DNA of 64,000 nt from Gekko japonicus (lineage: Eukaryota), in contig NW_015169227.1 of the NCBI RefSeq assembly GCF_001447785.1, positions 1 to 64,000 of the forward strand, in the 5' to 3' direction. Both the position numbers and the translations under genes were made by a program. The notes beneath the pieces were generated by a model. That model was given only the letters and a program-made list of their open reading frames with translations. It made no database searches and had not been told where the DNA came from. Of the stretch, positions 5,296 through 61,251 are shown piece by piece. Positions within the stretch are counted from its first letter, which is position 1. The number at the start of each line of letters is the position of its first letter.

Positions 5296-5448
5296 CTCTT
5301 AGTACTGATTTCAGATTCAGCTTGGCTTGACGGTGCAGATCTTCCACGCATGGTGGTCTTGTGGAGGGTAGAAACACATTCTCCTGCTGATGCCAGGGGG
5401 CAGTGTAATGGACCGTCCATCTACTCTCTTCATCTAGATTGGAGACAG
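5296..5448 (-). CDS. NHSL1: NHS-like protein 1, common internal coding exon (C-terminal part of the WAVE-homology region)
   Basis: Translates as [51 protein letters not shown], recognised as NHSL1 (the NHS paralogue reads VSNLDIESKL...). Acceptor tctgttttacag| and donor AGAG|gtaggg; 153 nt, phase 1/1. Confidence 0.96.
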
Positions 5449-8988: not shown

Positions 8989-9046
8989 TCTTTTTCTTGA
9001 AAAATTTGATTAGGGATTTGAGCTTTGTATTGATGAACACCACCAT
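8989..9046 (-). CDS. NHSL1: NHSL1 alternative first coding exon, MVVFINTKLKSLIKFFKKK(T)
   Basis: ATG at 9046 (gaaATGg), 19 codons plus 1 nt, donor A|gtaagt, in frame with the 5448 acceptor. Matches my recall of the human isoform start MVVFINAKIKSLIKLFKKKT. Confidence 0.92.
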
Positions 9047-15417: not shown

Positions 15418-16477
15418 GCTTCAACAGTACGTGGATAGAGAACTGCCAGAAGTATAAGCTGGGTTTCGAAGAGGTAGAGGAACTAGAGATCAAATTGCCA
15501 ACATTCGCTGGATTACGGAGAAAGCAAGAGAGAACCAGAAAAACATCTACTTCTGCTTCACTGACTATGCTAATGCCTTTGACTGTGTGGATCACAACAA
15601 ACTATGGCAGGTCCTTAAAGAGATGGGAGTACCAGACCACCTCACATGTCTCTTGAGAAACCTGTATAAGGGCCAAGAAGCGACAGTTAGAACCGGATAT
15701 GGAACAACTGATTGGTTCAGCATAGGAAAAGGAGTACGACAAGGATGTATACTGTCACCTTGCTTATTTAATATATATGCAGAGTACATCATGCAAAATG
15801 CTGGCCTGGATGAATCACAAGCCAGAATTCATCCGGCCCCATCACTCCTTGGCAAATAGAAGGGGAAGCTGTGGAAGTAGTGACAGACTTCACGTTCCTG
15901 GGATCCCAGATCACCGCAGACTGTGACAGCAGCCATGAAATTAAAAGATTTCCTTGGGAGGAAAGTGATGGCGAACCTAAACAGCATGATAAAAAGTAGA
16001 GACATCACCCTGCCAACAAAAGTCCGCATGGTCAAAGCAATGGTATTCCCAGTAGTCATGTATGGCTGTGAGAGTTGGACTATAAGGAAGGCCGAGCGCC
16101 GAAGAATAGATTCTTTTGAACTATGGTGCTGGAGGAGACTCTTGAGAGTCCCTTGGACTGCAAGAAGAACAAATCAGTCAATCCTCAAAGAAATCAACCC
16201 TGACTGTTCCCTGGAAGGCCAGATAATGAAACTGAAGCTCCAATACTTTGGCCACCAAATGAGAAGGGAGCACTCACTGGAGAAGACCCTGATGCTGGGA
16301 AAGATTGAAGGTCAAAGAAGACGGGGACGGCAAAGGATGAGATGGTTAGACAGTGTCATAGATGCAACGAACATGAAGTTGAGCAAACTTCAGAGGACGG
16401 CGGAAGACCGGAAGGCCTGGCGTGATCTGGTCCATGGGTCGCGAAGAGTCGGACTCGACTATGTGACTGAACAACAA
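15418..16477 (+). mobile_element. Bov-B (RTE) LINE, 5'-truncated, with internal deletion
   Basis: AFDCVDHNKLW, GVRQGCILSP, VFPVVMYGCESWT, RRRGRQRMRWLD; (CAA)n tail; 12-bp TSD catcacttacag at 15406-15417 and 16478-16489. Confidence 0.95.
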
Positions 16478-17034
16478 CATCACTTACAGAGCCACACCTA
16501 CCAAGCCAGATTTCACCCTCCCTCCTCTGTTCCACCCTCCCCAGGTGCAGTTGATGGTAAGTTGCCCAGCTGGGGAGCTTGGCACCAGGAGCTGTCCAGC
16601 TAACCCTGCCAGCTGGCTATCAAGTTTGGGGTCAGGCATGTTGGTGTTTTCCCATCTGTCTCCCTCTGCTGCTGAAGGATGGCCCCTTTCACAGCTTCTT
16701 CCACTGGGTAAGGGATTGAGAGCCAAGCCCAGGACATCAACTCAGGCAAGTGGCAACAGCTGCATTACAGATGTATGTCCCATTGCATCTCACTGGTTGG
16801 TATTGATTTGGCAGATATGATTGAGCCTCTGCTCAATATGGTGCTATGGAAATGAGGCACTCGGTAGTAATGCAGGTTATCACAGTGTTTTGTAAATACA
16901 TTTTCAGAGGAGGAAGCACACACATAATCTTGACAACTGCATGCAAAAAAAAAAGGAGTAATGACTTTTCAAAAAATAATTGTTCAAGGCTTGTGTAAAC
17001 ATTTAAGCTTTTACAGCAATATAAAATAGATACT

Positions 17035-19200: not shown

Positions 19201-19774
19201 AATACAAATGCTACCCAGATGGAGGTTTTAAATCTGCTTCTGACATTTTAGAATTTTATTAAATAGAAAAATCAGGAACTACCTCACAGCTTCTTAATAA
19301 ATATTAAGTGCACTAACTATTTAAAGCCTCAAAACACTCTACACAAATATTTTGTATTAAATAATAGTAATATTTTAAGAAATTTTGGCCACAGTTGCCT
19401 CAATTTAAGGGTGGAAATGGGGTGGTATTAGAATGATTTATGTTGTCCAAGACTTTTGGGTCATTGGATTATTTAAAATAAAGATTTTAAGAAAATGAAA
19501 AACAAGTGTGTATTTTCTCACAAGGGAACCAAGTCTACATAGCCATCTGTATAACAGAGTTTAAATAAATTTTCATCCAGTAACACCAGGAAAATTCCCA
19601 CAAACTCACTGTAAAACTCTTTGAAAAATCCTATTCCAAATGCTTTGTTCCACCTAACTATATTCTTATTACCTGTCATAACCCGCCAAACAATGTTGCT
19701 GGGTAAATTAATTTTTTCTCCGTGTTTTCATCTTTTGAAGAATGTGGAAATAAAATAAACAAGGCTTCCATATA

Positions 19775-19911
19775 CCCTGTTTCCCCGAAAATAAGACCTA
19801 CCCCAAAAATAAGCCCTAGCAGGATTTCTATGCATTTGTGGTATAAGCCCTAGTGTGTCTTCTTGAGAAAAAATAAATATAAGACAGTGTCTTATTTTCG
19901 GGGAAACACAG
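19775..19911. mobile_element. pogo/Tigger-type MITE
   Basis: TIR tgtttccccgaaaataagac / gtcttattttcggggaaaca, flanked by TA on both sides. Confidence 0.85.
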
Positions 19912-21087
19912 TAAATGCTGGGTAATATTTTTATTAAAAACATAAATACTTTCAAAAACCAGAATAAAATTGGGTTCAAATGGATTTCTGTAGCTAAAGG
20001 GTTCCCAAAGTGATACGCTTTACAAAGCTCCCAATATCCCAATCAATTTTATTTCCCACTCTGAAGAAATCCTAACAAAGCCTTGCCTCACCACTTGTTT
20101 TCAAAGGCAGATGTGCTTATATAAGGAAAATGTGTCAGGTCCCAGACTGTTAACGGCTTCTGAGGTAGTAATCAAATTGCACCTAGAAACCATTTCAGTG
20201 CAGCTGCTTTAATACAACACCATACAATCTCATATCTCAAGCCCAAGGCTGGATTTCTGCTTTCCATTCCAGCTGAAACTTTATGATATTTCTAAAGAGC
20301 TGCTCCACAAAGAATATGATTCAGAAGTTCATTCTTGAACTTGACATGAAGGTTAGGACCTACTTTCAAAAGAACTCTGAACTCCCCAAATTCAGACTCT
20401 GGACCAACACTTGCTCAAATTTAAAGGTTTTGCTTATTTTCTCTACACAGCCATGTCTGTGAATACCCAGTTTCTGGGAAAACATATTAGCATGAACTAG
20501 TCATCACACTGAGAATGTTGTGAGGAAGACTAATACAGTCTGATTAATGAAAGTATGGGGCAGATTTCTGTTGGAAGTAGAATATACCCTACATGGCTAA
20601 ACTTTGAAGATTCCCAGCTATCCCCAGTTGGATGGCTTCAGGTTACATTGTTTCCCTTTTGTCTATACATAGTTCTCTCACACAGAATATAATGAAAACT
20701 AGAGTTGAATATTATTAGTGTACTGATGGTAATTGAATCCTGGCCTCTCAGCACAGTCTTTTCCTATGTCTCTACAGTAGATGTAAAACAAAAACAAAAA
20801 GAAGACAGATCCTGTGGTTCCACACAGGAGTTTTAAAATAATCCCATGTAGCATTCTGTAAATTAGTCAAAAATTGTTTCAATCAGAGTCATCCCCCAAC
20901 TTCCAATTTCACTCTATAATAATTGTATCAATGTTTACTAGCCCACTATCAAAACTGTCAAGAGCTAATAAGACCAACACAGGACATAAAACCCTGTTGA
21001 TCTTATCCAGCAGGGCAACTAAAGCTGTCTCTGACCCTAAACCAGTCTGCAACCACATTAGGAGTTTAAACAGCCTAAGAAATTATG

Positions 21088-24847: not shown

Positions 24848-25198
24848 AAGTAAAGGTAAAGGTTCCCTTGCTCGAAAGCCAGTCGAATCCGACTCTAGGG
24901 TTGCGGTACTCATCTCCGTTTCAAAGCCGAAGAGCCAGCGCTGTCCGAAGATGTGTCCGTGGTCATGTGGCCGGCATGACTAAACACCAAGGCGCACAGA
25001 ACGCTGTTACCTTCCCACCGAAGTGGTACCTATTTATCTACTTGCAGTTTCTTGCTTTCGAACTGCTAGGTTGGCAGGAGCTGGAACTAGAGATGGGAGC
25101 TCACTCCATCATGCGGCACCCGGGTCTCGAACTGCTGAACTACTGACCTTCTACAGCCTGCAGTTCAGTGTCTTAACCACTTGAGCCACCGCAGCTCC
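24848..25198 (-). mobile_element. Sauria SINE, full length
   Basis: (ACCTTT)n tail and tRNA-like head on the minus strand; 13-bp TSD ttaggcttaggta. Confidence 0.92.
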
Positions 25199-27419: not shown

Positions 27420-28060
27420 TCCTCCCCTTTCACTAAAAGTCCAATTAGATTAAGCTTGGAGCTCCCTAGAGAGTTATATAGTAAATCTAATTGCGGAGCA
27501 TCCAGAGGCCAATGTTTTACTTCTTGGAGATTTCAATGCTCGCCTTGGCCCAGATGATCCAAGTCTGGAATTTAAATATAAGGAATTTTTAATGACTCGT
27601 GCGACTCTTATAAATTTTCTCCTCTTCCTAGGTGTTTTAAGGATTCCACTTCAAATGTGGCAGGTTTATATCTAGCCAAAATGGCCTACAAGTTGGGTCT
27701 GTACATTTTAAATGGTACTTTCTTGGAAGATTATCCGGCTGAGTTTACCTATATGTCGGGTCAGAGACTTAGCACTATTGATTATATGCTAGCGTGTGCC
27801 TCTCTATTACCTCTAATAACTAACTTTAAGGTGCTTCCATTTTTTGATAGTGACCACTTCCCCCTCTTCGTCCAATTTAAGTTTTCTTCTTTATTTCAAG
27901 CCACTTCCCTTCAGCCTTTACATGAAGGTTCCCAAGTATTAGGTCATAGGGTGAGATGGTCTCCCCAGATGCAAGCAAAACTCAGAAAAGTAATTGAGGC
28001 TAAAGGTTCCCAAATTTTCAAAACTATTTATCAGGAATTTAACATACAGCAATACCTTTA
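27420..28060 (+). mobile_element. Non-LTR retrotransposon APE endonuclease fragment (RTE-X-like)
   Basis: LLGDFNARLG, ILNG, FTY..., STIDY, SDHFPL motifs. Confidence 0.85.
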
Positions 28061-30181
28061 ACATGTCAATGTGGACCCTGATGGGAAGGGGAAAAGAAAA
28101 GGGCAAGGAAGTGAAGACCTGGGTAGGGATGTACACCTAAAAAATTGTATTTTCCAGATCTGGTTATCAGGGAGCTGAAAAATATCAGTATTCTCGGTTA
28201 TCCAGTTTCCAATTGGTTTGGTATTCCTTCCCCCCTCTCCGAGCATTTTTCAGATACATATTTGGACCAGATATATCTAAACGCACATTCCTAAAGCTGT
28301 GTTAGATTTAAGATAGATTTCCCAGTCAATGAAATACAGCTATTACGCACACACAACTACAATTGTTTAGCTTTATTATTAAATCTAATTCAGTTTTGTA
28401 ACATAGAGAGCAAAAGGAAAACAGATGGGTCATATTAGGATGATTTACACATCTCCCACCACTGTTTTCTGCTCCCTGAAAATACAATTGATCTTTCGTT
28501 TACCCTTCTCTCATAATGAATTTGCCTCAGTGCATTCAGAGATGGCTCCCATATGGTTAAGATGCATGCATTAATTAATATGCAATTAATAAAACTCTCT
28601 GATCATCAGCTTTTGTTCAAAGAGGCAGCTTGTCCGCATATCAAATGCTAATTAGACAAATGAAGATAGACCACTTTTGTTCAGCAATGAACTGATAGGC
28701 TACTGTAACCAGTCCTCTTAAGATTTTCTGAAAGGGCGTCAATAAGCAGAGTGCAGAAGATTCAATTCCCACAAAAAGGAACTATTACATCAACAAATTA
28801 ATGGATCATTACAAATAGTGTAAAGCTCCTGGTGCTCTCTTTTTTCTAACAGGCAATACATGAACTACTCCAGAACAATCTTTGGATTTGAGGGTAGATT
28901 AAAGTAAAATTGAGGGTTTTTTTCAGCAAACAAGGTCAGACACTATTTGCTGAAAAGTGCATACTGTTGAAGCTGTTACTGCTTTTTATTTCAACACCCC
29001 CAACACTAGAAATGCTGTTGAGAGAGAAAGCTTCACTACTGCTTTCTAAACATTTTTAAAGACATTGGTGCTTTCTAAGCAGGTATCAAAACAGAGACAC
29101 AAACTTTCATTGTCATCAGAAGGAACACTTACTTCACCATACTAACAGGGACTATCCTAAACAGAATTATATCACCTTCTAAATCCATTGAAGTTAATGG
29201 GTTTAGAAGGAAAGAACACTATTTTGGTTTACACCGTACATAGGGTTACAAGGCAGTGGGAGACTGGGGGATGATGAGGACATGGGAGGGATGGCTGCTG
29301 GCAACATAGCAATATCACTTCTGGGAAAAACCCAGACGTGCCCAGACGTGATGTCACGCCTCTCCATGAATTGCTGAAAACTCTATGGCAAGGACCAACA
29401 TTACTTCCAGGGTTTATCCCCTGGAAATGATGTCATACTGTTGGGCAGATCGCCACTTTGTTGTTGATTTCTCTTGTTGTTGCTCCAAGCAGCAGCAGAA
29501 AACAAGTGGGGTGCAGAGGATCCCCCAACTCCATCAAGAGCCTAGCAGCTGGAACTGTACATTTTGTAGATAGTGTTCAGATTGTCAATAGCTCTTTTGC
29601 TAGCAGCTACCATATTATTTAACTCTCAAAAATCAGGAAAATAAGATCTCTACAGGTTTTCTTGCGGGTGACAAGTTGTTTGTCAGGGAAGGTAGCCAGG
29701 CACTGTAACTGGCTGTAGCCCAAGCTCTTTAGCAGGTAAGCTGTTAAAATTTCTCCAGTGTCTTTACTGTAGATATGGCAAAGTCTAGATGAGCCACTAT
29801 TGAGCTTAGAGTCCAAGTACATCTTATGCCATTTTTATTTTAACCAGCTGTTTTTACATGCGAGCATAGTTTCCAGGATACACTCACTCATTCATTCATT
29901 CCATTTGTATCCCGCTGTCCCCCACTTGTCAAGGAGGAAAATGGCACAGGAAGAGAGGAAGACTTTAACCCTTTCCTCCCGTTTCCTCACTAAGAAATGC
30001 TATCCCCAACCTTCTTTTACCGCCTGTGGAATCTGTAAGTTCCTAATCAACTGAACCTGTAAATTCCTAAACAACTACTGAAAAGTAATTTGGTCACTGC
30101 CACAAAACAGTAAAACTCTGCTTCACTGGAAAGTAATCAAAACTTTTGGTGTCATTGGGAAAAGCTAGAATTCTCTACTGG

Positions 30182-34427: not shown

Positions 34428-34832
34428 CTAAGAACATAAGAACATAAGAGATGCTAATGTTGGATCAGGCCAATGGCTCATCTAGTCCAACACTCTGTCA
34501 CACAGTGGCCAAAAATACCAGGTGCCATCAGGAGGTCCAGCAGTGGGGCCAGGACACTAGAAGCCCTCCCACTGTTGCCCCCCCCCAGCACCAAGAATAC
34601 AGTGCATCACTTGCCCCAGACTGAGAGTTCCTATCTATATCTTGTGGCTAATAGCCACTGATGGACCTCTGCTCCATATGTTTATCCAATTCCCTCTTGA
34701 AGTCATCCATGCTTGTAGCCACCACCACCTCTGTGGCAGTGAATTCCATGTGTTAATCACTCTTTGGGTGAGGAAGTACTTCCTTTTATCCGTTCTAACT
34801 CGACTGCTCAGCAATTTCGTTGAGTGCCCACG
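34428..34832 (-). mobile_element. CR1 LINE 3' fragment
   Basis: RTDKRKYFLTQRVINTWNSLP; (aagaacat)n tail seen on the plus strand. Confidence 0.88.
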
Positions 34833-35075: not shown

Positions 35076-36017
35076 AATCCTAATTGTAACTGGACACATT
35101 TTACATTTCCGGTGCTCAATCTACCAATTTTGGGGTTTTTTCCCTAATACTATGCATATACAATGTGAAAATCATCATCATCATCATATCCTCAGTCTCT
35201 GTACAAGTTGCTGACCTTTCAAATGCCTTTTTTCAACCTTATCCTCACATGTGGCAATAGGGAATGCAAAGCAGGCAGCAAGGCAAAGCAGCAGATGCAC
35301 AGGGACTGGTAGTAGCCCTGAGGTCAAGAGGTACAGTTTTCTCAGCAGTTAATTGAGTTGCACTGCCTTAAGTCTATACTGACCTATTCTGTCCCTTTTC
35401 ACTTTGATTTGCACCTGCTACTGAGCTCAATTAGACAAGGAGCTCGACTCTGTTTTGGTTCAGGTTAACCAGTGGAAGCATGATTTCTTTTACCACTATT
35501 AGGAAAGAACCTCCCTAACCAAAATTTCCTTCTGCAGGGCACAGGGCGGTAAGATGAGGCTTGCAGAAAGAAAGTGAAAAATGTTTGCTGTTGTTGTGAT
35601 CCTTAAAAATAAAGCCAAAAGTCAACTTACATTCATAAAGATTATCCTTCCAATAAGCACATACTGGACACCAAAATCAATCATTTTGTTCCTAGATCTT
35701 GGCTTTACTCCTTGCACACTTTTTCATTAAGATAACATTAACAAATTGTTATGGCAAAGGGGAATATCTTTTCTCTGGCTTCTACAGTAACAACTAATTG
35801 TAACACTTCTTTAGATGTGAGTTTTCAGAAAGTATGAAAACATGCTAAAAATGACTTTCCCCAACATTTTTAACTACTGGTTTGCTTATTAAAACAAAAG
35901 TATTCAGTAAAAAGGAACTTAAAACATAAACATATATATTCTTAATAAAAATAATGATGACCATTTCTTTAATCCACTTTAATAGTAAGAATAAATTATA
36001 GGTAAGAGGCAGGGCAT

Positions 36018-36115
36018 TGAGCAAACTTCAGAGGACGGTGGAAGACAGGAAGGCCTGGCGTGATCTGGTCCCTGGAGTCGCAAAGAGTCGGACTCGACTG
36101 TGCGACTGAACAACA
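36018..36115 (+). mobile_element. Bov-B 3' end, about 100 bp
   Basis: Bov-B terminal sequence; 14-bp TSD aagaggcagggcat. Confidence 0.9.
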
Positions 36116-37249
36116 AAGAGGCAGGGCATGCATATTAAGGCATTTGGATGAATCAGGGGACTAAAAACAGAGCTTTAACTCTAATATAACAGAACTAAGC
36201 CATTGTACTTAGTTATTACTGTCAAGTTCCTTGTAAATTACCTTAATTTTAATGGAGGACCTTTTGAAGGACTGAAAGCTATCTGTAAGGTTTAGTCACA
36301 GAACAAACTTTGTTGTGAAATACTCTGCTGGTCACTTGATTTGCAAGTTACAGATGAAGAGGTATAACCTATTCACCCTTTGACTGGCAGTGATCTTGAG
36401 ATTGCTATTAGATTAAAAAATGGTCAGTTAAAAAAAGAGGAGCAAGTAAGTGCAAGGAATGTAGTTCGGGCATTTTCATGAGTGGGGGATAGTAAACAGA
36501 TCGAAAAGTAGCATGACTGGAAAGATAAGGAATCAGCAGAGCTGGAGGTTAGTTTGTTCTCTAACTCCAAAACATCAGCAGGGAGTTGTTAGGAAAATGC
36601 TTTTTCCTCTCTCACATACTTTCCTGAGCCATCCCAAGAACTGCTAGGTGCCTTACTCGAACACAGAGATTAAGAGAGAAGCAAAATTATAACTATGGGC
36701 TGAACTATTTGGCTTGATCCCACCCAACATAGCCACTGACAGAAAGATTTCTGTTAGCAGAAAGTAACTTTCTCACCTCCCATCTCCTGCTGGACTGAAA
36801 GCCCCCCCCCCCCCCCTTCCCGGGGGGGAGGGAATAAAGGGGGCAATGATGGACGTGCTATAGGTGGGGTTAACTGGCAAAAAACTTCTATGGATTGATT
36901 CCGACTCTTTGAGTAAATTGCAAGATTTGGTATTTTCAATACAGGAGATCGAAAGCTAGCTTTATGGAACAACAACAAAAAATCTCCTAAATTTATAAAA
37001 CACTAGTTAACAGCATCAAATTTCATTTTAATGTAAATCAAACACTTTTGGTGCTAAATAAATATTAAATAGCGGTATGTGTCATCTAGTTCTTTAAAAC
37101 ATTCATACAATGATAAATTATATTTACCTAAGTCGTAAGAGAAAAACATATGTACTTCTCTATATGAAAGAAGTTATATATATGAAAGAAGTTATACACA
37201 AGGCATCTGAAAACAGAAATTATTAGTAACACACAAGAACTATTCTTAC

Positions 37250-40559: not shown

Positions 40560-41290
40560 TTTTGCTGATACAGGGTATGATGCCAGCAGGGGCATGTTGG
40601 CAAATAATACCCCCCTGGGTGCAATTTCAAGTTGGAATATATAATTCCTGCAGTTCCCAAGGCCTTTAATGTTAAGGTTATCCCACAGGTTTTATTTGGG
40701 GCAAGCATTTGGATTAATGGGGTCACTGAGTTTATCGACCATCCACTTCTTCAGTTTCCCCATAGACTTTCCTTCAGTAAATGTAAAAGACCAACCCCCA
40801 GGTTGTTTGTGCAGTTTGTGCAGCGCTCATTGGAGTCCAGGGCCAGGTGCCTTCAGCTTAAGAACATAAGAGAAGCCAATGTTGGATCAGGCCAATGGCC
40901 CTTAAGACTGAAGTCCCTCTTTTCAAAGTCCAGTACCTGGGGGTTGGTCTTTTACATTTACTGAAGGAAAGTCTATGGGGAAAAGAAGGAAGTGTGTGGG
41001 GGAAATGTGTGGATAATCTATTAGAGTGTCTTGGTTTCTCTCCTATTGTGGTTAGGGATATGAGCTATACTAAAGCTGTAAGGCTGGTAAGGAAAAGGAT
41101 ATTGAGCTTAACTATGCCAGCACGCAGGCCCATGCAGGAAGTATATGTTCTATGTTTGCAGGCGCTCTGACACTAAGCCTCCTTACAGCTCCTAGACATA
41201 GGCATGCTTTTACATTAGGCAGACTGAATGTTCTGCTAACTGCAGGGGTTAGGGGGTGTTTAACCAAAACTCAGGGCCAGCATCTTGTCT
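40560..41290 (+). mobile_element. Old RTE-X-like LINE fragment with a short CR1 3'-end insertion (about 40860-40900)
   Basis: AFNVKVIPQVLFGASIW parallels the 11.7 kb element. The insert matches 34438-34478 and is flanked by cttaaga. Confidence 0.6.
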
Positions 41291-42573: not shown

Positions 42574-43099
42574 GGTTGTGTTCAGACTGGCAGTTTGGCC
42601 CCATATAGGCACATTTTACAAATGGATTAAACAGGCAGGATCACACAGTCACATCTGTCAGGTGTTCCCCGGGTGTACTCGCCCCGTCAAAGGATGAGTT
42701 GGGGCCGGGTTAAAAAGCCACCACCTCCAAAGTGGTGTTTTTGTTCCCCTGTGCATTCATTGCGCAAGGCCGGATGTCTGAACTTGGGGGAGTACGTGCA
42801 GAACTGATTTGGCAGTGTGAACCTGCAGGTCTGTTCTGCAGCTTTGGAGGTGGTTTTTTAAAAGACTTGCCTATGTGCGCATGCGTGCGCATGTGCACTA
42901 CGCACACACATGGTGTTTGGATTTTTTTTGCAGTTCGCTCCATGGCTGCGGCGCCACAATAATGTGGAGGCTTTAGCACGGGATGTCTCCGTGAGTAACC
43001 CACAGCAGTGCTGTGTGGCTGATATATCCCACTACACTTTAACCCAGTTCAATTAGAGGCGGCACCATATCACGCCAAGCCGCCAGTGTGGTGACAGCC
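42574..43099. mobile_element. MITE with Harbinger-like termini
   Basis: Imperfect TIR ggttgtgttcagactggc / gccagtgtggtgacagcc; internal inverted repeat aaaaagccaccacctccaaag / ctttggaggtggttttt. Confidence 0.6.
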
Positions 43100-46000
43100 T
43101 TAGAGTGACAGGCTTGCTGAGCTCTCTCCCCAAAGTCTGCCCTCCCCAGGCACAACTCTCAAATCTCCAGGAATTTCCCAAGCAGGATTTGGCAGCCCCC
43201 CAAACCAGCCAAAATACTGCCCCTCAGAGTGCAGGGGCCTCCTCACAATAAGATAAGCTGCACAGGAAGCTACAGTTCAAATAGGAAATCCACAGAAATC
43301 ATAGCGACAGCCCCAAAGACAGCTTGAGCTGAACTGAATCAAAATACGGTCTCCAAATTAAATTCTGTCTGCTATTCTGTAGAGCTCATAGTTTAAAAAC
43401 AAGAACACTTTCCTCTTAATAAAAGAAACAGAAAGGTGCACCTTTAAGAACTGCTACTGCTTGCCTAGCTAAACTGAAAAAACGCTTGCGCTCTAAGACA
43501 CCAGAAACAATCTGTTTCTGATATTTGCTAAGAATGTTGCCAAGAAAAGAATTCAAGGAATGCCATTACATGCACACTACACATAAGACAACTGGTGAAC
43601 AGACCATTGATGTATTTTCAAAGAATAGAAAATAAATCAGCATTTCTAGAACGGATCTTTCCTCTAGGGAGCAACGACCACATGCCCAGGATTTTTCAGG
43701 AATGGTATCCAACATTACTTATTGCTATTTTTAGCAGAAAATATTCTCTCTGCTTTCTTTCCTCAGATCTACAGCTGTAAAACAAGCAGTAGTATGGAAA
43801 ATGGTTCTTAAACGTAGCCAAACTAAGTTTACAGTACTCCAGGCCATACGTTCTTTACAGTGAAATCATAACATGGTTTAGACAAGCAGGAACTCTTGTT
43901 TCAGTACAGAATAAAATATCATGTTTGGTATGATTTTTCTAAAAAATTACTCTAGAAGCGACAATATTTTCATCTCCAAGGTCTCCCTTCTTTCATCCCC
44001 CTAATCCAAACTATTCAAGATATATAAATAAACTCCCTATTTGAATTCCAGTATATTGAGAACTCTTACACATTCTAATCCAACAATAATGCATCATAAA
44101 ATGGTCGGTCTTATTAATTGTACAGACTCAGTCAATGAAACATAAATTACTAGTTCTGCTTGCGTGTTTGATTAAAACAAGTAGGTTCCACGTTCACAGC
44201 TTTAACACCCAAGGAAGTTTAACTTTCAAAAAAATGCATCCCACAATTCTCAGTCACATGGCTCCCAAGGTCTCTAACAAAGAGATGAACCAGTGATTAC
44301 TAAATCATTTGAAGTACCACATCAGTAAAACACGAGTCAACAACACATAAAATAATACAGTATATAGAAAAAAATTGTTTTGGAGGGAGGGAACATCAGG
44401 AAAAACAAAAAATATGCTCCCAAAGCACTCAGAATTAACAAAGAATAAAATTGTGAAATCACTCAAAAGTCAGGTGATTAATACAGATTAATACAAAAAT
44501 GTATTAAATTGGGTGCTAGGTAGATGGCAGGTGGGTGGGTGTGTCCACAACTGAAGCCACCACAAAGAGGTTCTATTTTTAACAGCCACCTACCACAAAT
44601 CTGAAAGTGGGGACATACAAAGTAGGCTATTTGCATCCCTCTTTTCCAAGGGCTCGGGATGAAATCTAATATTTCTCAACCTCTTATCTGTAATTAAAAT
44701 GATTAGAAGCAACTTGTGTCCTGTACTACTTCCTGCTACATCCAGCACAAAACCCTCCATCCTTTACTTTTTCAGCATTAACTCTGCTAAAGTTTTATAT
44801 TTGGTCAGTGCTAACATGGTTAGTTTCATCTGGGTTTTAAGAAGAACTATGACCACTGGTTCAGATATAACCTTGGTGCATATCTGTCACTACACTAATG
44901 AGGAAAAGCAGGAGAGAACTTGTGCAAGATGTGAAGGAAGTTCTTGAGCTCAAAAGGTAGTCTCTGAACTCTCTGCTTAAGTGATAGCTCAACTACCTTT
45001 GACAGCCAGCCAAATTTTGTGTTTGCCAACTTTCTACTTCACAGTACTTCCAATGGAACTGTAGCATGCTTCTGCTGAGCCCCAGAGAACGCCATACTGC
45101 CCAAACATGCATAAACACGACTTGTTATCTCTAAAATAAAATTACATTGGGTCAAAAAAAAATGGTAGACAGACATAGCAATGCTGTGTACCACAGCTGA
45201 ATGGGATGCAGTGGTGCACAGTGGGTTGGATCTAGACTAAATTGTCAACTTCCACTGATTGCCCCTTCCCACTGCAGACGCCCCTCATGTTACTGTTCAG
45301 GATCTCCTGTCTCCAAGGTCCAGCATTTTGTGCAGATCAAAGGACTGCAATGGGAGGGGGAGGCAGGAAAGTTCCATTCAGCCATTAGTCTGGCTCCAGC
45401 CCAGTATCTGTCTGGATCACTTAGTCCTGGATGGGCCACCCAGAATTTTTTTGCTATATTACTATTTCCTCTCTCCCTTCCTTCTGCTTCCTATGAGAGT
45501 GCATGGCAAGCCAAGAGTCTTGAAAGAGGTAACCACAGGATAACCAGCCTGTAAATGAGCCAGAATAAAGGTGGCATATGAGAGCTGTGTGATATCTTAT
45601 CTGTAGTTCCAATGGAGACCCATACACCTGAACTTCTGAATTCTGTCAATTAGGGGTGCAACTGGCCTGATAACTCGACAATTTTTAATCCTATCCCATG
45701 AGTAGCAAGCATATTATTTGCTGAAGCAACTTGCTTCAGTGGCCCCTTGTCTTTCTGCCACAATGTAATTTTTAAAAAAAGCAAACAATTCCTGAGCTAG
45801 AATCATAAACATAGAGTCAAGAAACAAATTTCTGCACACAACTGCTGCTGAGACACACACATATATATATATATATTAAATCAAATTGCCAGTGCTCATC
45901 AAACTTTTTGTAGATATACTGATAATTATGCCCAAAGGACAGTAGGAGACGGCACGTAATCTTTCATGCTGTCTTTCATAGCTTTCCTCTGAACTTGTTC

Positions 46001-46612: not shown

Positions 46613-47850
46613 ATGCCAAATGCAAATACATACGTGGTTGTCCCTTCCCCAATTTATCCTTACAAGAACCTGTGAGATTGACTAGGCTGACAAAGAACAA
46701 CTGGCCTTAATAGTGCAATCCTATTTATTATTTGTTTATTTATTTATTTATTGAATTTGTACCCCGCCCTCCCCTCAGGCTTACACTGGTTAAAACATAA
46801 ATAACAATTAAGATACACATAAAATCATCTAAACAACTCAGTTATAAATAATTCATAGTTCATAAAATGCTGGCAATGTTTAATTGGTTACTTAAGATGG
46901 CATACCGTCAGGGTGCATAAAAGAGGTCCTTCGTAATATGAGCGGCGGCACAGGCTAGGTAAACTGACTTCCATGGACTTGGAAGGGTATAACTCACTGA
47001 GTTTCATGGCAAAGTGGGAATCTGAACTCTGATCTCCTGGACCCTAGACCAAAACTGTATTGCCACACTAGCTCTCACTGGCTGTATCAGTAATTACTAA
47101 TGTGAATAATGATTCCAAAGAGATTTTAAAAATACAGTACATGTAACAATAGGAAGGGTGAGAGTATTTCCGCCGTCTAACAAAGATATGCAAGAAGAAT
47201 CCCATAATCCACTTCAACTCAAACCAGGCTACATTTAGTTAGCAGCTGTGGGGGTAGGGTTGTTGAAAGCACCATGGTCAGAGCAGGGATCCCCTGCCCC
47301 CCCATTTCCCTTGCTGCCACTGCTCTGAGCAATGGCCATTGGACTGACAGCATGACATCACTTCCAGGAATATCTGGAACTGATGGCATTGCTCTCTAAG
47401 AATTGCCAACACTTCTATGATTTCTCCAGTGATTCCTAGAGAAGACTGACATCACTTCTAGATATTCCCAGAAGTGATGTCACATTGTCACTGATGCCCC
47501 CACATCTCCCCCACTCTTCCGCTGGCTGCCAGCCCTGGCAATTCTGGGGGAGGGATACAGATAGGGTTTAACTTCCCCCACTTCCACACACACACACACA
47601 CACACAAAATCATCAAGGATATACAAACTGCCAGCCTTTCCTTTTTCCACTATGAGGGCAGCAATAGGAAACAGAACCTGCTGGGGAGATGGCAAGTGAT
47701 TAATTCCAAACCTCATCCTAATTAAAGGAACAAGAAGCACAGCACACTCCTTTTGCCTTGATTTCTGAGTCAGCAATCCTCCCAAAGTACTCGGCCAAGG
47801 AGGCAGCAGGAAATACTAGTGGATCCTTGAACACTGCTCATGGCTTGCTT

Positions 47851-48198
47851 TAAGGTAAAGGTTCCCTTGCTCGAAAGCCAGTCAAGTCCGACTCTAGGGT
47901 TGCGGTGCTCATCTCCGTTTCAAAGCCGAAGAGCCAGCGCTGTCCGAAGACGTTTCCGTGGTCACATGGCCGGCATGACTAAACACCAAGGCGCACGGAA
48001 CACTGTTACCTTCCCACCGAAGCGGTACCTATTTATCTACTTGCAATTTCTTGCTTTCGAACTGCTAGGTTGGCAGAAGCTGGAACTAGAGATGGGAGCT
48101 CACTCCATCATGTGGCAACTCGGGTCTCGAACTGCTGAACTACTGACCTTCCACAGCCTGCAGTTCAGCGTCTTAACCACTTGAGCCACCGCAGCTTC
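47851..48198 (-). mobile_element. Sauria SINE, full length
   Basis: Near-identical to the 24848-25198 copy; 12-bp TSD catggcttgctt. Confidence 0.92.
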
Positions 48199-51600: not shown

Positions 51601-51714
51601 AATATCAACAAGAAGTAAGTTTTCCAAAACAAAGCAAAAGTTATGCGTTTTAATTCTGCTTCATATATTTTAGAAGCTTTTGCGTTTGTTTAACTTCTTA
51701 TACTCTTGGTTTGA

Positions 51715-52653
51715 TCTCTCGAGAGATCAAATTGCCAACATTCGCTGGATTATGGAGAAAGCAAGAGAGTACCAGAAAAATATCTACTTCTGCTTCATTG
51801 ACTATGCTAAAGCTTTTGACTGTGTGGATCACAACAAACTATGGCAGGTCCTTAAAGAGATGGGAGTACCAGACCACCTCACATGTCTCTTGAGAAACCT
51901 GTATAAGGGCCAAGAAGCGACAGTTAGAACCGGATATGGAACAACTGATTGGTTCAGCATAGGAAAAGGAGTACAACAAGGATGTATATTGTTTGGGGAT
52001 GGTGGTTCCACATGTCTGTGCATTTTCATAATTGTGGAGCCAGTTTATTTTATTTATTCATACCCCACCTTTCTCTCCAATGGAGACCCAAAGTGTATTA
52101 GAAGAAGAAGAGAAGAAGAGATTGGATTTATACCTCGCCCTTCACTACCCATGATAACAGCATGATAAAAAGTAGAGACATCACCCTGCCAACAAAAGTC
52201 CGCATGGTCAAAGCAATGGTATTCCCAGTAGTCATGTATGGCTGCGAGAGTTGGACTATAAGGAAGGCCGAGCGCCGAAGAATAGATTCTTTTGAACTAT
52301 GGTGCTGGAGAAGACTCTTGAGAGTCCCTTGGACTGCAAAAAGATCAAATCAGTCAATCCTAAAAGAAATCAACCCTGACTGTTCCCTGGAAGGCCAGAT
52401 AATGAAACTGAAGCTCAAATACTTTGGCCACCAAATGAGAAGGGAGCACTCACTGGAGAAGACCCTGACGCTGGGAAAGATTGAAGGTCAAAGAAGACGG
52501 GGACGGCAAAGGATGAGATGGTTAGACAGTATCATCAATGCAACGAACATGAAATTGAGCCAACTTCAGAGGACGGCGGAAGACAGGAGGGCCTGGTGGG
52601 AGATGATCCATGGGGTCGCGAAGAGTCGGACTCGACTGTGCGACTGAACAACA
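51715..52653 (+). mobile_element. Bov-B LINE, 5'-truncated, centre replaced by SINE-tail sequence (about 51991-52155)
   Basis: CFIDYAKAFDCVDH, GVQQGCIL, MYGCESWT; 12-bp TSD actcttggtttg. Confidence 0.92.
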
Positions 52654-52855
52654 ACTCTTGGTTTGGCTCAAAGTCTTTTTGTTTTTGCTTTAAAACCGTT
52701 TTTACAGTTACGTGAGAGGAGACACGTCCGAGCGGTGAAATGCTTAAACCGGAACTGTAGTGGGCAAGTTTGCAGGTGACACCAAATTATTCAGGATGGT
52801 AAAAACCAAGGCTGACTGTGAAAAAGCTCCAAGAGGATCTCCACAAACTGGGTGA

Positions 52856-53087
52856 AGATAAAGGTAAAGGTTTCCCTTGCTCGAAAGCCAGTTGAATCTG
52901 ACTCTAGGGTGCGGTACTCATCTCCGTTTCCAAGCCAAAGAGCCAGCGCTGTCCAAAGATGTTTCCATGGTCATGTGGCTGGCATGACTAGATGCCAAGG
53001 CACACGGAATGCTGTTACCTTCCCACCGAAGCAGTACCTATTTATCTCCTTGCAATTTCTTACTTTCAAACTGCTAGGTTGGCAAGA
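52856..53087 (-). mobile_element. Sauria SINE, 5'-truncated, inside CR1
   Basis: aaggtaaaggtt tail and Sauria body. Confidence 0.85.
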
Positions 53088-54145
53088 GCTTTTCAATTTA
53101 GACAAGAGACAACTAAGGGGAGACACGATACAGGTTTATAAAACTATGCATTGGATAGAAAGAGTCAACAAAGATAATTTTTCTCCCTCTACCAAAATAT
53201 TAGAACTCGAGGGCATCTAATGAAACTGACGGGCAGTAAGTTCAGGATGGACACAGTGAGTGATTACAATGTGGAATTTACTGCCAGAGGATGTAGTGAT
53301 GGCTACAGGAATAAACAGCTTTAAAGGGGGATTAGATTCATGGAGGATACGTCTATCAATGGCTACTAGCCACGGTGGCTGAGGGGAACCGCTACATTCA
53401 GAAGCACTAATCCTCTGAATCTGAGTTAGGAGGCAACATCCGGGGAAGGAGTCAGCCTCTATGCCCTGTTGTTGGCCGTCCAGTGTGGCCCCTGTGTGAG
53501 ACAGGATGCTAGACTAGACAGACTATTGGTCTGATCCAGCAGGGCTCTTCTTACGTTATTAAGAGGAGGAACATTTTGCAAACAGGGTAGAATCAGATGT
53601 GATGGCAGCAGAACCATGTCTTCAAATGTGGGTTGTCAAACAAGAGTGAAGCGGAGGGAGTGATTTCAAGCAGAAAAGTGATAGGTGGGATAGGATGTTA
53701 AAAACCCCTTGATCTACCCCACACCCACACAAAAACCTAAAGTCATTTTTCACCTGGCTAAAAATATTTTGATCTTGTGATTAATTAACATTAACTATCA
53801 CTCAGACACAACTCCGGACCTTCAGGAGCTGGCAGTCCTGCAAAACCTCCCACAAAACAGGCCTCTTTGTAGCTACAATAGACACATGCATGTGAAAGTA
53901 CAAATTGTTTTATTCTGCAGAACCTCTCATTAATCCAGATTATACACTTACTGGACATCAATTGATTTTATCTCTTTAATGGAGGGGTGGAGTTTGGGAA
54001 ATGGCTCTAATCAGTGTGCAGACAGGGAACAAAGGGTACATTAAAGTTACCCCTTAGTCAACCCAGTCAGAGGTCTGAAGCAGAAGGTGTGCAGATCAAC
54101 TGAGAGTATCAGTGATTTATTTGCAGGCCCAAGCCTAAAGAAATG

Positions 54146-55729: not shown

Positions 55730-56038
55730 TTTTGTTGTTGTTGTTCAGTCACACAGTCGAGTCCGACTCTTCGCGACCCCATGGACCAGATCACGCCAGG
55801 CCTTCCTGTCTTCCGCTGTCCTCTGAAGTTTGCTCAATTTCATGTTCGTTGCATCTATGACACTGTCTAACCATATCATCCTTTGCCGTCCCCATCTTCT
55901 TTGACCTTCAATCTTTCCCAGCATCAGGGTCTTCTCCAGTGAGTGCTCCCTTCTCATTTGGTGGCCAAAGTATTTGAGCTTCAGTTTCATTATCTGGCCT
56001 TCCAGGGAACAGTCAGGGATGATTTCTTTTAGGATTGA
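55730..56038 (-). mobile_element. Bov-B 3' fragment
   Basis: KLKLKYFGH...RTRLCD; (CAA)n tail; TSD ctgtagctat. Confidence 0.92.
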
Positions 56039-56571
56039 CTGTAGCTATATTCCTCAGCAACTTGGTTTGAAGCCAGTAGCAGGTGATAATGCTTATCTCC
56101 ACACTAGGAATAAAGTCTGCTGCCTGCTAATTCTCAAACTGCAATTGGGGGCTAGCATTCCCACAAGACAGGTGTTGCTTGAAACACTCCAGTTACATGG
56201 TCTGAAATCTGCATCAGAGAATTCCTACTACATTAATGTAAAAAGAGGGGAGAATCTCAGCTCAGTTCTCCTTGCCAATAAAGTATTACAATACTGTGTT
56301 GACTATTCTATTGGAAAGGCATGGTAGAAATATTTTTTAAAATAGAGAAGGTACAAAGAAAGTTAGGCAAAGTTACGAGGAACTTCTGAAACAAACAGGC
56401 AGTAAAAGCAGCAATAACTCTGTTTATTCAGTCTACCAGTATTTAGGAATAGAAAAAGCCACTCACAAGGAGAAGAGCCTATGTAAGATCACAGAATCCA
56501 TGGACACAAACTCACAGCAAAGATCCACTGATGAGAAATGGGAGGAGCAGCAGCACTGCTCAGTCTGTGGT

Positions 56572-56765: not shown

Positions 56766-59700
56766 AGGTGCTCAGTATATAGCTCTTGATTTTTTCAGTG
56801 TACATTCTATTTTTGTATTACTGGGTAGACCGTATACCAAAGTTTCCAAAGAAACTGAGGCCAGAGAAAATGCTCTGAAACGTGCTGTTCATATCATTAT
56901 CTACAATGGCCTGCCTCGGAAAAAATACAAATCAACATACAAATCTGCCTTACACTAAAATCAGAGCATTTGTCCCTCTAGCTCAGTGTCATTCTGACTG
57001 GCAATGGAACCCCCCACATCTCAGACAGAAAGGGGCCTTTCCCAGCCCCAGCTACTGGAGATCCTTTAACTGGCGATATTGCGACTCCCCCCCCCACACA
57101 CACATGACAACAAAATTATGCAGTCAGCCAATCTAAAGTCAAGTAATAAGGAAACAGGCCCCTAGTCATCCCCACATATAAATGTCTTACCCTATAGACT
57201 CTATACACATGGACTATGGCTTTACCTTTACCCCCCACCCTCTGGCTCCAGTTACTTTACCTTGAGCCTGGACATTGCCATTGCAGTCCCACAGACATCT
57301 GTTACTATGAGCCCTGTTCCAGGATTAAGACTATTAGAAGCTATAAAGGCTGTTCTCTGGCCACAGTTGACACATCTCTGTTAGTTCTGGGTTGCAACAC
57401 AGGCCAGTAAAAGTGTGATGGCAACGACACTGTCTGGCCTTGCCTGAACACTCAGGATGTTGGGAAATTCCACAGTATAAAAATGGCAAAAACACCAAGA
57501 GTACCATTGCCCGCAGCTGCTCCACAACTACAGAAAGTCCTATACCCAGAGGTCTCTTCAACCCTCAGCACTTTCTGGAACAGTGTTGGGTTTAATCTTT
57601 GGGCTGAAATATGGTGATGTGAGTTTTAAAAAATGTAAACATATTTTATATGTTGGGGTTTTTTAAACATGTTACTTGTCCTGCTGTTTCACAAATGAAA
57701 GACACAGAAGTACCAGCAGTCACTCCAAAAGACTGGACAACTCTTCTTTTTGTACTACCGATCAGTTGAAGTCTGTTTTTATTCAGCTTTCAGTGAGTTC
57801 TCTACAAGTAGCCTCTGGGTCTGCCACTGCTCAGCTCTTTTTAAACAAAAAAGAATCAGTTAAGCCAGTAAGACTCTTAATGAAGCCAAATCTCAGCCTT
57901 GAATAAAGTTAGCCTCACGTTAACAGCAAGTCAAACAAAAGCCATGGAACATACAAAGGGAAAACACCTCCTGGGCCAAGAGGAAAACCTCTGTAATCTT
58001 AGTTCTCCAAACATATATTTTTTTAAGTTCCTCAGCAAAAGACATATGTAAAAGCAGCATTCCTCAAAGTATTAGAGTTCAACATGAAGTCAAAGGGGCA
58101 ACTATTTAATAAGACACTAGACAGTGGAGACATTTGCCTTGTTTCGTCTTCACAGGAGGCATATAGATTTTTTATATTTGCTTAACACACTCAGATGGGA
58201 CAAAGTGGATCTTCCACCAGTCCCTAACACTTTATAGCTGCCCTCACAGGGGAAGTGGGAACGTGTACAGCTCAGCAGCTCAATTTTGGCTAAAATCTGT
58301 ATTCCAGCTTCAAGCACACCTCTTCTGTGCCTCAGCACATGAAAACTGGGGCAAACCAGAGTAGTTCATCTCTATAAAGACCTGGTTTGCAGACAGCTTC
58401 TTCAGTCTGGACTTATCAGACATGAACAGATTTAATTCCAGTCTGAGGTTGTTTGGCCCTCCCTAGTCTACCTAGCAGAGTTTACCTACTGTTAGGAAGG
58501 GAGTTTACCTACTGTTATTTTATTGCACTTATCTTTATTTGAAAAGGAATTTCCCTTCAAAGTTCATTATGCAACACCTCTTTCTTCCCCACTTTTAGTA
58601 AAGGTCAGGTTTTATCTGTCGCCTGGAACACCTTGTGGATGGAGTCACCATGAGTCAGTTGTGACTCAACAACATGTATTTATTTAGATATTTGCCTATG
58701 ACACATTTCTCTGATTATTTCAGTCACACAGAGTTCCCTTGATGGAAACCAGGTGGTAGTGAGACTTCAGTGGAGGCAGTCAAACTCGAGTAGGCTTATA
58801 CTTGGTGGCAGCAAAGAGTGATTTTATACTAGGGAGAGAGCTGGATAGATATTGGGTGCGGGGAAAACTGCAGTGCTAACATCTCCTAGTCATGGGTCAG
58901 GCTAGAAGCTGTTCTGTCATGGCAGTTATGACTCACAAAAAATGATAATTGACACAGAGGAGAAAAGGAAGGGCCACATAGCCCAACCACATACAAGTAA
59001 ACAACAGTTGACCGTTCTTAGCAAACTCAAGAAGACAGACCACCATAGCTAAATATCAAGATATTGTTTTGAACTGGGCCAATAATTGGTTTAAATTATC
59101 AGTTTATCAAGTTATAGAGATCGTGGCAAACAGCTATAGTCAAAATATGCAGCAATGACACTAGAATCCCACAAAGTACTTTGAAATAAAAGGCAGTACT
59201 GTTAGGACATCATATGTAGTGTGAAGCTCACATGGACCTGTCATGTGTGGGGTGGTCTTCCTTCTTGCTTTCAACTAGGGAAGTCTCTGTGTTGTCCCCT
59301 CATTCAACTAAATGAAAAGTCTGCTAACTAAATGAAAAGTCTACAAGAAAATGTCACATTGAGCCAAAAATGTTTCCACTTCAGCTATTTGTTGCCAACT
59401 TTTCTGCCAACTATTGTGTTGCCAACTCTTGAAAGCAAAAATTCTTGTACGTAGGTAAGACCTGGGGAGGCACAGCCATCTGGGTCAGGATATGGAATCT
59501 ACAAGAGTTTATATAGCAATTGTAGAGTCAAAGTCTTTATTAATACCGTCATAGACAGGCACAGATAATGACTGCATTTGCTGGATCCAGTGGGACAGTC
59601 TACTATTTAAAAAAAACAAAAACAGTTAAGTAAGGGGAGAAATGGTCTTGGTCCTTATTTTTCCAGCAACTGGCCATGTTTTTTGTTTCATTTTCAGATT

Positions 59701-59767
59701 ACTGGCATTCTTGAGGTACTAAACGTTCTGGAGTATCAGCATATATATCACTGATTACCAGCTCACT

Positions 59768-60267
59768 GGGTGCGTTCAGTCGGGGGCTTTCTGCCAGCAT
59801 AAACTGCACCGGTTCCTTTCTGCCGGCATAAACGCAATCATACTCACCCTCCATTTTGCGGATCCCTCCGTTGGATGCCCGCTCACACGCTGCGGGCATT
59901 GGCGGGGTTTTTTTTTAAAAGCAGTTTGAGCATGCGCAAAAATCGCCATTCTCTGAATGTCTGCCTATGCGCATGCTCAAACCCCCCCCCCATTCCATTT
60001 AAACTTTAAAGGAAAGTTCTTTCCTTTAAAGTTTAAATGGAATGGGGGGGGGGTTTGAGCATGCGCAAAAATCGCCATTCTCTGAATGTCTGCCTATGCG
60101 CATGCTCAAACTGCTTTTAAAAAAAAACCCCGCCAATGCCCGCAGCGTGTGAGCGGGCATCCAACGGAGGGATCCGCAAAATGGAGGGTGAGTATGATTG
60201 CGTTTATGCCGGCAGAAAGGAACCGGTGCAGTTTATGCTGGCAGAAAGCCCCCGTCTGAACGCACCC
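59768..60267. mobile_element. 500-bp fold-back (palindromic) non-autonomous DNA transposon, probably PIF/Harbinger-type
   Basis: 249-bp arms around a TT centre; termini gggtgcgttcag / ctgaacgcaccc; 3-bp direct flank ACT on both sides. Confidence 0.88.
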
Positions 60268-60608
60268 ACTGTGTTATAATCTGCAGCTATGCTTGATTTA
60301 CAGATATTAAACAGGCTACAAAAATGCAGATAACTTGCCAAATGTTACATAGTCCTTGTAGTCACAGTTGATTATTCCCATTCAATTTGTTCCTTATGAG
60401 ACAAACCAGAAAAAATTGTGAAGTTTGCCTTTTGTGTGAAAGACACCTGTTACAAAGCAGTTCAAGCCATTTTGGAGCAAACAAGTTGTTTCCTGCACAG
60501 TGACTCAGGGCTATTTCAGAGCAACAGGTAAACTGGATCACCATGCACAGCAAACAGGACATAAACAAGGTTTTTTTACTAAGTCAAGAACAAAGTTAGG
60601 AAAATAAA

Positions 60609-60666
<58 letters not shown>
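60609..60666. repeat. (AAT)n microsatellite
   Basis: Directly visible. Confidence 0.95.
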
Positions 60667-60670
<4 letters not shown>

Positions 60671-60898: not shown

Positions 60899-61251
60899 GA
60901 GCTGCAGTGGCTCAAGTGGTTAAGACGCTGAACTGCAGGCTGTGGAAGGTCGGTAGTTCAGCAGTTCAAGACCCGAGTGCCGCATGATGGAGTGAGCTCC
61001 CGTCTCTAGTTCCAGCTCCTGCCAACCTAGCAGTTCGAAAGCAAGAAATTGCAAGTAGATAAATAGGTACCACTTCGGTGGGAAGGTAACAACGTTCCGT
61101 GCGCCTTGGTGCTTAGTCATGCCGGCCACATGACCACGGAATCGTCTTCGGACAGTGCTGGCTCTTCGGCTTTGAAACGGAGATGAGCACCGCAACCCTA
61201 GAGTCGGATTTGACTGGCTTTCGAGCAAGGGAACCTTTACCTTTTACCTTT
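60899..61251 (+). mobile_element. Sauria SINE, full length
   Basis: gagctgcagtggctcaagtggttaag head; accttt-type tail. Confidence 0.92.

Follow-up and report, generated by a model that had tools for sequence, protein, structure and literature searches.

A 500-bp palindromic element of Gekko japonicus with one nested loop pair in direct orientation, probably a MITE carrying a single inherited loop flip

This locus raises the question of how a palindrome can be almost perfect along its arms and still hold a pair of nested loops that face the same way. We analyzed a window of 64,000 nucleotides from Gekko japonicus (contig NW_015169227.1, positions 1 to 64,000, with no N anywhere), in which a 500-bp element occupies positions 59768-60267. 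It is the longest of the 56 inverted repeats of at least 20 nt in the window. Its layout on the + strand is T s L s' A tt A' s L s' T', with T of 156 nt, s of 15 nt, L of 29 nt and A of 34 nt, so that two arms of 249 nt face each other across a TT centre. Aligned against the reverse-complemented right arm (60019-60267), the left arm (59768-60016) pairs at 233 of its 249 positions. Fifteen of the 16 unpaired positions are within the 29-nt loops, and the other is 59780, a T opposite the T at 60255. Outside the loops 219 of 220 positions pair, homopolymer runs included, in agreement with the first-pass annotation, which had described near-perfect arms around TT with one mismatch. That annotation had also placed 29-nt loops in direct orientation on 15-bp sub-hairpin stems, and it was right to do so: the loops at 59939-59967 and 60068-60096 are identical at 29 of 29 positions on the same strand, rather than being reverse complements. 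The complete 59-nt stem-loop-stem unit is an exact direct repeat with a spacing of 129. The parts of the element are:

59765 to 59767, no strand: left target-site duplication ACT (or CACTG at 59764-59768 if the element starts at 59769)
59768 to 59923, + strand: left trunk T, 156 nt, with a G-rich terminal repeat (about 59768-59786) at its start
59780: lone arm-to-arm substitution, in left trunk T
59787 to 59804 and 59816 to 59833, + strand: two subterminal repeats of 18 nt, period 29, alike at 17 of 18 positions
59875 to 59899, + strand: small hairpin with an 8-bp stem and a 9-nt loop, not flipped in the other arm and hence an internal control
59924 to 59982, + strand: side unit 1, with a stem at 59924-59938, the loop at 59939-59967 and a stem at 59968-59982 (stems 15 bp)
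59983 to 60052, no strand: central 70-nt hairpin, made up of A (59983-60016), TT (60017-60018) and A' (60019-60052)
60053 to 60111, + strand: side unit 2, an exact direct copy of unit 1, with its loop (60068-60096) oriented as loop 1
60112 to 60267, - strand: right trunk T', the reverse complement of T, terminal repeat included
60202 to 60219 and 60231 to 60248: subterminal repeats of the right trunk, within T' (60112-60267)
60268 to 60270, no strand: right target-site duplication ACT (or CACTG at 60267-60271)

The 18-nt subterminal repeats are candidate binding sites for mobilizing proteins. The loop shares at most a 6-nt exact match with the terminal repeat, which we did not take as a hint to its orientation, and segment A is not significantly similar to other parts of the arm (shuffle fractions 0.41 and 0.21).

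Older palindromic relics, 59-81% self-complementary, are found at 140-290, 2619-2811, 3973-4066, 19769-19917 and 47345-47490. Among six other palindromic relics inspected for the appearance of a flipped loop, one (47345-47490) has a direct 12-mer shared between its halves. At 40739-40999, arms of 65 bp that are 91% complementary surround an unrelated 131-bp middle; this middle matches a repeat at 34437-34477, and the structure is either a local inverted duplication or a nested insertion.

The ends of the element can be parsed in two ways, as ACT-GGG..CCC-ACT (500 bp) or as CACTG-GG..CC-CACTG (498 bp). In the 498-bp parse the element runs from 59769 to 60266 between 5-bp direct repeats at 59764-59768 and 60267-60271. 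Among eight symmetric boundaries tested, only these two have a duplication of at least 3 bp; the chance expectation for each single boundary is about 0.0014 for a repeated 5-mer and 0.019 for a 3-mer. The ACT that had been annotated at both ends is present, with the 5-bp CACTG parse also possible, and both parses lead to the same empty site, C-ACT-G, which is semi-palindromic around its central C. Transib and CACTA elements (CMCT), with 5'-CA..TG-3' termini (PMC12730594), were rejected, since the ends are GG..CC, not CA..TG, at both boundaries that have a duplication of at least 3 bp. LTR-like TG..CA and CACTA/Transib-like boundaries were likewise rejected, the duplication there being no longer than 1 bp. 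The right junction (60267-60273, - strand) bears what we take to be a resemblance to a V(D)J recombination-signal heptamer; the left side agrees at only 5 of 7 positions, that boundary region has no duplication, and the likeness is probably due to chance.

The G-rich ends, the subterminal repeats, the short duplicated target and the whole-element palindromy together describe a MITE. Its terminal inverted repeats start with G or GG, as do those of PIF/Harbinger MITEs (PMC4482050), and like them it is short (500 bp) and non-coding. Its target centre, ACT, is not the TWA of PIF/Harbinger sensu stricto, and it differs in this from the TNA/TWA Harbinger MITEs. Groups of PHIS elements are separated by target into TWA, ANT (Pangu), CWG (NuwaI) and C-TNA-G (NuwaII) (PMC4482050). 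NuwaII elements have GG ends and the same ambiguity between a 3-bp and a 5-bp target; they include 15 turtle families and 3 non-autonomous frog families of 402-440 bp, and one NuwaII fish family, SENKUSHA1, has the target C-NNN-G (PMC4482050). The gecko element has the C and G flanks and the GG ends of this type, and it shares the 3-versus-5-bp ambiguity and, in the ACT parse, the C/G-bounded 3-bp target with NuwaII-type families such as Harbinger-2N1A-C_XT and SENKUSHA1 (PMC4482050), but its centre is not TNA. Its single insertion site agrees in letters with the ANT of Pangu, and the ends of Pangu/Harbinger2 elements may also start with GG (PMC4482050, PMC12730594); membership of that group, however, is decided by the phylogeny of the transposase, and a non-coding element has none to offer. 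Because none of the 34 Pangu families listed in PMC4482050 is from a vertebrate, while NuwaII holds turtle and frog families and the C-NNN-G fish family, we infer that the Harbinger subgroup is probably NuwaII-like, without making this a firm filing. On the basis of one insertion and its end motifs, the element looks like a young non-autonomous member of the PIF/Harbinger-type MITEs. Harbinger activity in squamates is documented in sea kraits (PMC10379679).

The youth of the element is apparent from its composition. It contains 28 CpGs, 14 per arm, with an observed/expected ratio of 0.84 versus 0.25 for the window, and the arms differ at 1 of 249 positions (0.4%; 95% interval 0.01-2.2%). Arm identity alone could be the result of homogenization, but the high CpG ratio and the near-identical arms together point to a young element. 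The intact CpGs and the young insertion proposed earlier are supported, as is a duplicated target.

We found no coding capacity and, within the window, no second copy. The longest stop-to-stop frame overlapping the element, among 28 frames listed, is 71 aa, and a coding element was therefore rejected. Pfam searches of the 142 frames of at least 72 aa in the window gave four reverse-transcriptase matches, one NHS match and two weak matches below cut-off, and no transposase or Rep/NS1 domain. An autonomous PIF/Harbinger partner would encode a DDE transposase together with a Myb/SANT protein and would have the same ends as the element. In the 64-kb window, BLAST and nhmmer matched the element only to itself, and none of 836 tile alignments was a convincing copy (best score 37 versus a mean of 23.4). 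The terminal 14-mer, with up to 3 mismatches, occurs at 9 sites in the window versus 2.4 expected; two of these are the element's own ends, and the other seven are degenerate and could not be paired into a related element. A generic scan of the window for end pairs gave six pairs, two of them from the element, versus 0-6 in 20 shuffles. A degenerate stretch at 42574-43100, not among the top tile alignments, resembles Harbinger at its start, contains a T-run with GCGCATG-type repeats behind it, and recalls the element's arm.

Long hairpins are hard to sequence, and the structure could in principle be an artefact of assembly or library preparation, produced by a fold-back, by a chimera of two family copies or by a polymerase switch. 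Near-perfect arms with matching homopolymer lengths could come from polishing across arms. However, such polishing would be expected to give reverse-complementary loops rather than direct ones, and the arms keep one difference in a window that has no N. The palindrome also ends at element-like termini within unique flanks that carry a 3- or 5-bp direct repeat. The element has no match in phage and plasmid records, and its gapped stem pattern has none in bacterial and archaeal genomes; a bacterial, phage or vector origin was rejected for lack of matches in those collections. We consider an artefact very unlikely.

A close structural comparison is the Xenopus consensus Harbinger-N12A_XT, a 342-bp palindrome with GGG..CCC ends from a family of 3,521 copies (PMC12676858). 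Two sub-hairpins are nested in each of its arms (stems of about 19 and 13 bp; loops of 9 and 21 nt), and in both pairs the loops are reverse-complementary, apart from 2 mismatches in the longer pair (PMC12676858). We read this structure by eye from the supplement of PMC12676858, and a consensus hides minorities. The gecko element resembles it in the GGG..CCC ends and in the motif at bases 10-14 (4 of 5 alike), and more generally it resembles vertebrate palindromic PIF/Harbinger MITEs in its length of a few hundred base pairs, lack of an ORF, GG(G) ends and nested sub-hairpins. It differs in having a nested loop pair in direct orientation; the loops of both Harbinger-N12A_XT pairs are reverse complements. 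The Xenopus element, compared by eye, is an analogue and not a homologue, and perfect palindromy appears to be its default. Since a catalogued Harbinger MITE has side hairpins of this kind as a normal feature, the branched arm of the gecko element is ordinary and not a special design, and only the direct orientation of the loops needs explaining. The 15-bp stems of the gecko element have what we presume to be a likeness to an NRF1-type motif. NRF sites are enriched in Harbinger-N12A_XT (PMC12676858).

The loop pair has the properties of a micro-inversion. Each loop is the exact reverse complement of the other arm's state over 29 of 29 positions, well above a threshold of at least 15 nt, and perfect 15-bp inverted repeats abut both loop edges with zero offset. 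Between human and chimpanzee, 59 definite micro-inversions of 17-33 nt have been reported, all flanked by inverted repeats of 3-75 nt and 45 of them exact (PMC8755829). Published micro-inversions (PMC8755829, PMC8794818, PMC7954356, PMC9653739) and the gecko loop are thus alike in exact reverse complementarity, in size, with 29 nt inside the 17-33 range, and in the repeats abutting both edges. The gecko case differs in that the reference is the element's other arm, not another genome, and in that the change sits in a mobile element able to multiply it. Double template switching is accepted in PMC8755829 for long perfect repeats, with microhomology-mediated repair as a general route, and homologous or site-specific recombination is excluded there at this size. 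A forward interstrand switch inverts a hairpin loop (PMC8794818), a four-point model of template switching has been described (PMC7954356), hairpin inversions are called common in plastomes (PMC9653739), and template switching in gap repair has been invoked for the birth of MITEs (PMC3814204).

The best explanation, which we regard as probable, is a PIF/Harbinger MITE in which a single loop flip, made by template switching or repair in the source copy, was inherited. A transposase acting in trans would have inserted a MITE that is a palindrome over its whole length, duplicating the C-ACT-G target. The ancestral form would have been a perfect palindrome with short inverted repeats nested in each arm. 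A double template switch in one arm would then have reversed precisely the 29-nt loop that lies between the 15-bp stems: a jump to the opposite strand at one stem, backward copying of the loop, and a return at the other stem. Microhomology-mediated repair is an alternative route and would give the same product. The unflipped arm would serve as a built-in record of the old orientation, although either loop may be the flipped one. The flip would have occurred once, in the source copy or during repair of an excision gap, and would have been passed on by insertion. This reading retains the earlier proposal that one loop was inverted between its own stems by template switching, to which the size and anatomy of published micro-inversions lend support. 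The alternative offered at that time was that the family conserves a branched design. The branched arm is ordinary, as described above, and the two alternatives are compatible, since one flip in a source copy would leave the whole family with direct loops.

The published rates bear on the timing. Micro-inversions arise at 2e-13 per nt per generation, compared with 1e-8 for substitutions, or about 2e-5 per substitution (PMC8755829). With about one substitution in the element, a flip private to this copy would be improbable at such a low rate unless the site were a strong hot spot. It is more likely that the flip came with the source copy, a soft preference given that the rates are from primates and that a scan selects oddities.

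The same arithmetic can be turned in favor of recurrent flipping, in which excision gaps are repaired across strong hairpins and the family becomes a mixture of loop isomers through host repair. A flip in an element with about one substitution is unlikely at genome-average rates, gap repair with template switching has been proposed for MITEs (PMC3814204), and hairpin inversions are called common in plastomes (PMC9653739). However, one copy cannot show recurrence, and a single inherited flip explains the element. The consensus of Harbinger-N12A_XT has the default orientation in both of its sub-hairpin pairs, although a consensus hides minorities, and the 8-bp-stem hairpin of the gecko element is unflipped. 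One arm contains six perfect inverted repeats of at least 6 bp. The longest (15 bp) alone is flipped, and two are unflipped; the other three are uninformative, as they enclose the mismatch or the flipped loop. We regard recurrent flipping as rather unlikely. A bolder version is that active palindromic Harbinger MITE families are mixtures of loop isomers, produced by high-rate template switching at excision-gap repair, in which flipped isomers are favored by interrupting an unstable 237-bp palindrome; we would give it only a small chance, and offer it as speculation.

It is also conceivable that nothing was flipped. The parent could have been a 371-bp MITE with 171-bp arms around a 29-nt loop, whose central 59 nt were duplicated directly when a staggered break at the base of a cruciform was filled in from both sides and a 70-nt hairpin was captured as filler. 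This would account for the exact direct repeat of the 59-nt units, for the simple 371-bp palindrome that remains when 129 nt are removed, and for the unlikeness of segment A to the rest of the arm by the shuffle fractions given above, and it needs no separate origin for the 15-bp stems. It requires several events instead of one, and a palindromic filler for which the window offers no source. The catalogued Harbinger MITE shows that side hairpins nested in the arms are normal. A 371-bp form might just as well have arisen later by deletion. Deletions of 129 bp, leaving 371 bp, are predicted by the 59-nt direct repeats that surround the 70-nt hairpin. We consider a history of this kind unlikely.

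The flip has a large effect on the predicted folding of the element. The folding z-score is -43.5, and none of 100 shuffles was equally stable. Energy is lowest for a rod in which the loops form an internal bubble, with uninterrupted helices of 158 bp and 48 bp. As DNA, the rod (-312.4 kcal/mol) is ahead of the cross (-302.5 kcal/mol) by 9.9 kcal/mol; as RNA, the values are -470.2 and -453.1 kcal/mol, a difference of 17.1. The probability of pairing in the side hairpins is 3e-7 for DNA and 2e-11 for RNA. The cross described in the first-pass annotation can indeed be drawn, with a trunk of 156 and an apical hairpin of 34 bp, but it is not the predicted fold, since the rod is favored at equilibrium. 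We also folded the NHSL1-sense strand at eight growing lengths, as equilibrium folds and not as a kinetic simulation. The first side hairpin was seen at 215-285 nt and was absent from 300 nt on. Hypothetical perfect-palindrome isomers have a DNA energy of -352.0 kcal/mol, so that the flip costs the rod about 40 kcal/mol.

These energies are relevant to whether the arrangement is a selected design, in which a cross-shaped single strand or the loop orientation is needed for mobilization or for an RNA function. The flip narrows the gap between rod and cross from 48.2 to 9.9 kcal/mol (DNA), and the two side hairpins are identical, as such a design might have it. The rod nevertheless dominates, by the side-pair probabilities above. 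Cut-and-paste transposition acts on duplex ends. None of 22 Rfam matches reached the gathering score, the matches being to generic hairpin models, and a known structured RNA family was rejected. We find a selected design highly improbable. A single inherited flip would have no designed function. As a by-product, the uninterrupted central palindrome, which would be 237 bp without the flip, is about 49 bp per arm with it. Perfect palindromes of great length are unstable, and this shortening may aid the persistence of a flipped copy.

A likeness to the flip/flop isomers of parvoviral ITRs had been suggested, and it does not extend beyond formal shape. The configurations of the AAV ITR arise through Rep-driven replication. 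The systems are alike in that a segment between complementary stems takes two orientations, so that two ends give four configurations, and for the AAV ITR, at the ends of the genome, all four are equally frequent (bioRxiv 10.1101/2024.05.07.592296). Parvoviral ITRs, however, cap a linear single-stranded viral genome, whereas the gecko element is internal and chromosomal, lies between unique flanks with a target duplication, and is seen in one configuration. None of the 142 window frames (at least 72 aa) matches a Rep/NS1 Pfam family. With no terminal position and no Rep gene among these frames, the gecko element is not a member of the flip/flop systems.

Both the type of element and the kind of mutation are already known, and the gecko case is a neat example and not a new system. 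In the literature searched, where subscription journals were thinly covered, we found no description of a flipped nested loop in a MITE. That literature also yielded no palindromic Harbinger elements in lizards or squamates, a search for teleost Harbinger elements was likewise empty, and a search with four motifs of the element returned nothing related, only one unrelated paper on a fly. If one flip was inherited, the element is little more than a tidy instance of template-switch micro-inversion in nature and a diagnostic marker of a MITE subfamily. If flips recur, palindromic MITEs with nested hairpins would supply many internally controlled events and would allow a direct test of whether excision repair drives micro-inversions, events that are rare and difficult to identify by genome comparison (59 definite cases for human and chimpanzee; PMC8755829). 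Were families truly mixtures of isomers, they would be self-referencing reporters of template switching that need no outgroup, and in any vertebrate genome one could relate flip rates to stem length, loop length and the history of transposition. There is also a practical warning: when a consensus is built for a palindromic MITE, the orientation of its loops can be hidden or scrambled.

The gene context of the element was examined through the exons in the window:

5296 to 5448, - strand: shared coding exon of NHSL1, 153 nt, bounded by AG and GT (Pfam NHS, E 4e-33)
9008 to 9046, - strand: start of an alternative, proximal NHSL1 first exon, agreeing with a gecko isoform at 12 of 13 residues (E 0.057, weak by itself)

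The earlier identification of NHSL1 is confirmed by the Pfam match and by protein matches to the shared exon; within the best 120 of 1038, almost every named match is a vertebrate NHS-like protein 1. Of 24 named NHSL1 isoforms from reptiles and birds, a single one starts with a short exon, and this exon matches 9046-9008. The remaining 23 have long first exons for which the 64-kb window offers no credible match; these presumably lie beyond 64000. The element is about 51 kb upstream of the proximal start and is probably in an intron of the long isoforms. Because it is upstream of the proximal first exon, it would be in the pre-mRNA of the longer isoforms only. The long double-stranded RNA that had been predicted in NHSL1 pre-mRNA is possible as helices of 158 bp and 48 bp, but only if long isoforms span the site. 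A 158-bp RNA duplex deep in an NHSL1 intron might conceivably have effects, but these would be expected of any palindromic MITE.

Several other repeats are present in the window. LINE reverse-transcriptase fragments at 15458-16600, 51674-52655, 55733-56041 and 36016-36116, which we take to be RTE/Bov-B-like, are 94-97% alike over 100-500 bp and were recently active. A different, older LINE fragment (11218-12594 and 27582-28061) has its reverse-transcriptase match at 11218-11709 and, at 27582-28061, a frame that looks endonuclease-like and gave no Pfam match. A SINE-like repeat, presumably Sauria-SINE-like, is present in three 345-bp copies that are about 95% alike (24852-25197, 47852-48196 and 60899-61244), one of them 630 bp from the palindromic element, and in an older partial copy at 52851-53090. 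An (AAT) microsatellite of about 22 units is located at 60603-60667, and the flank of the element contains short tandem duplications at 59306-59342 and 59385-59427.
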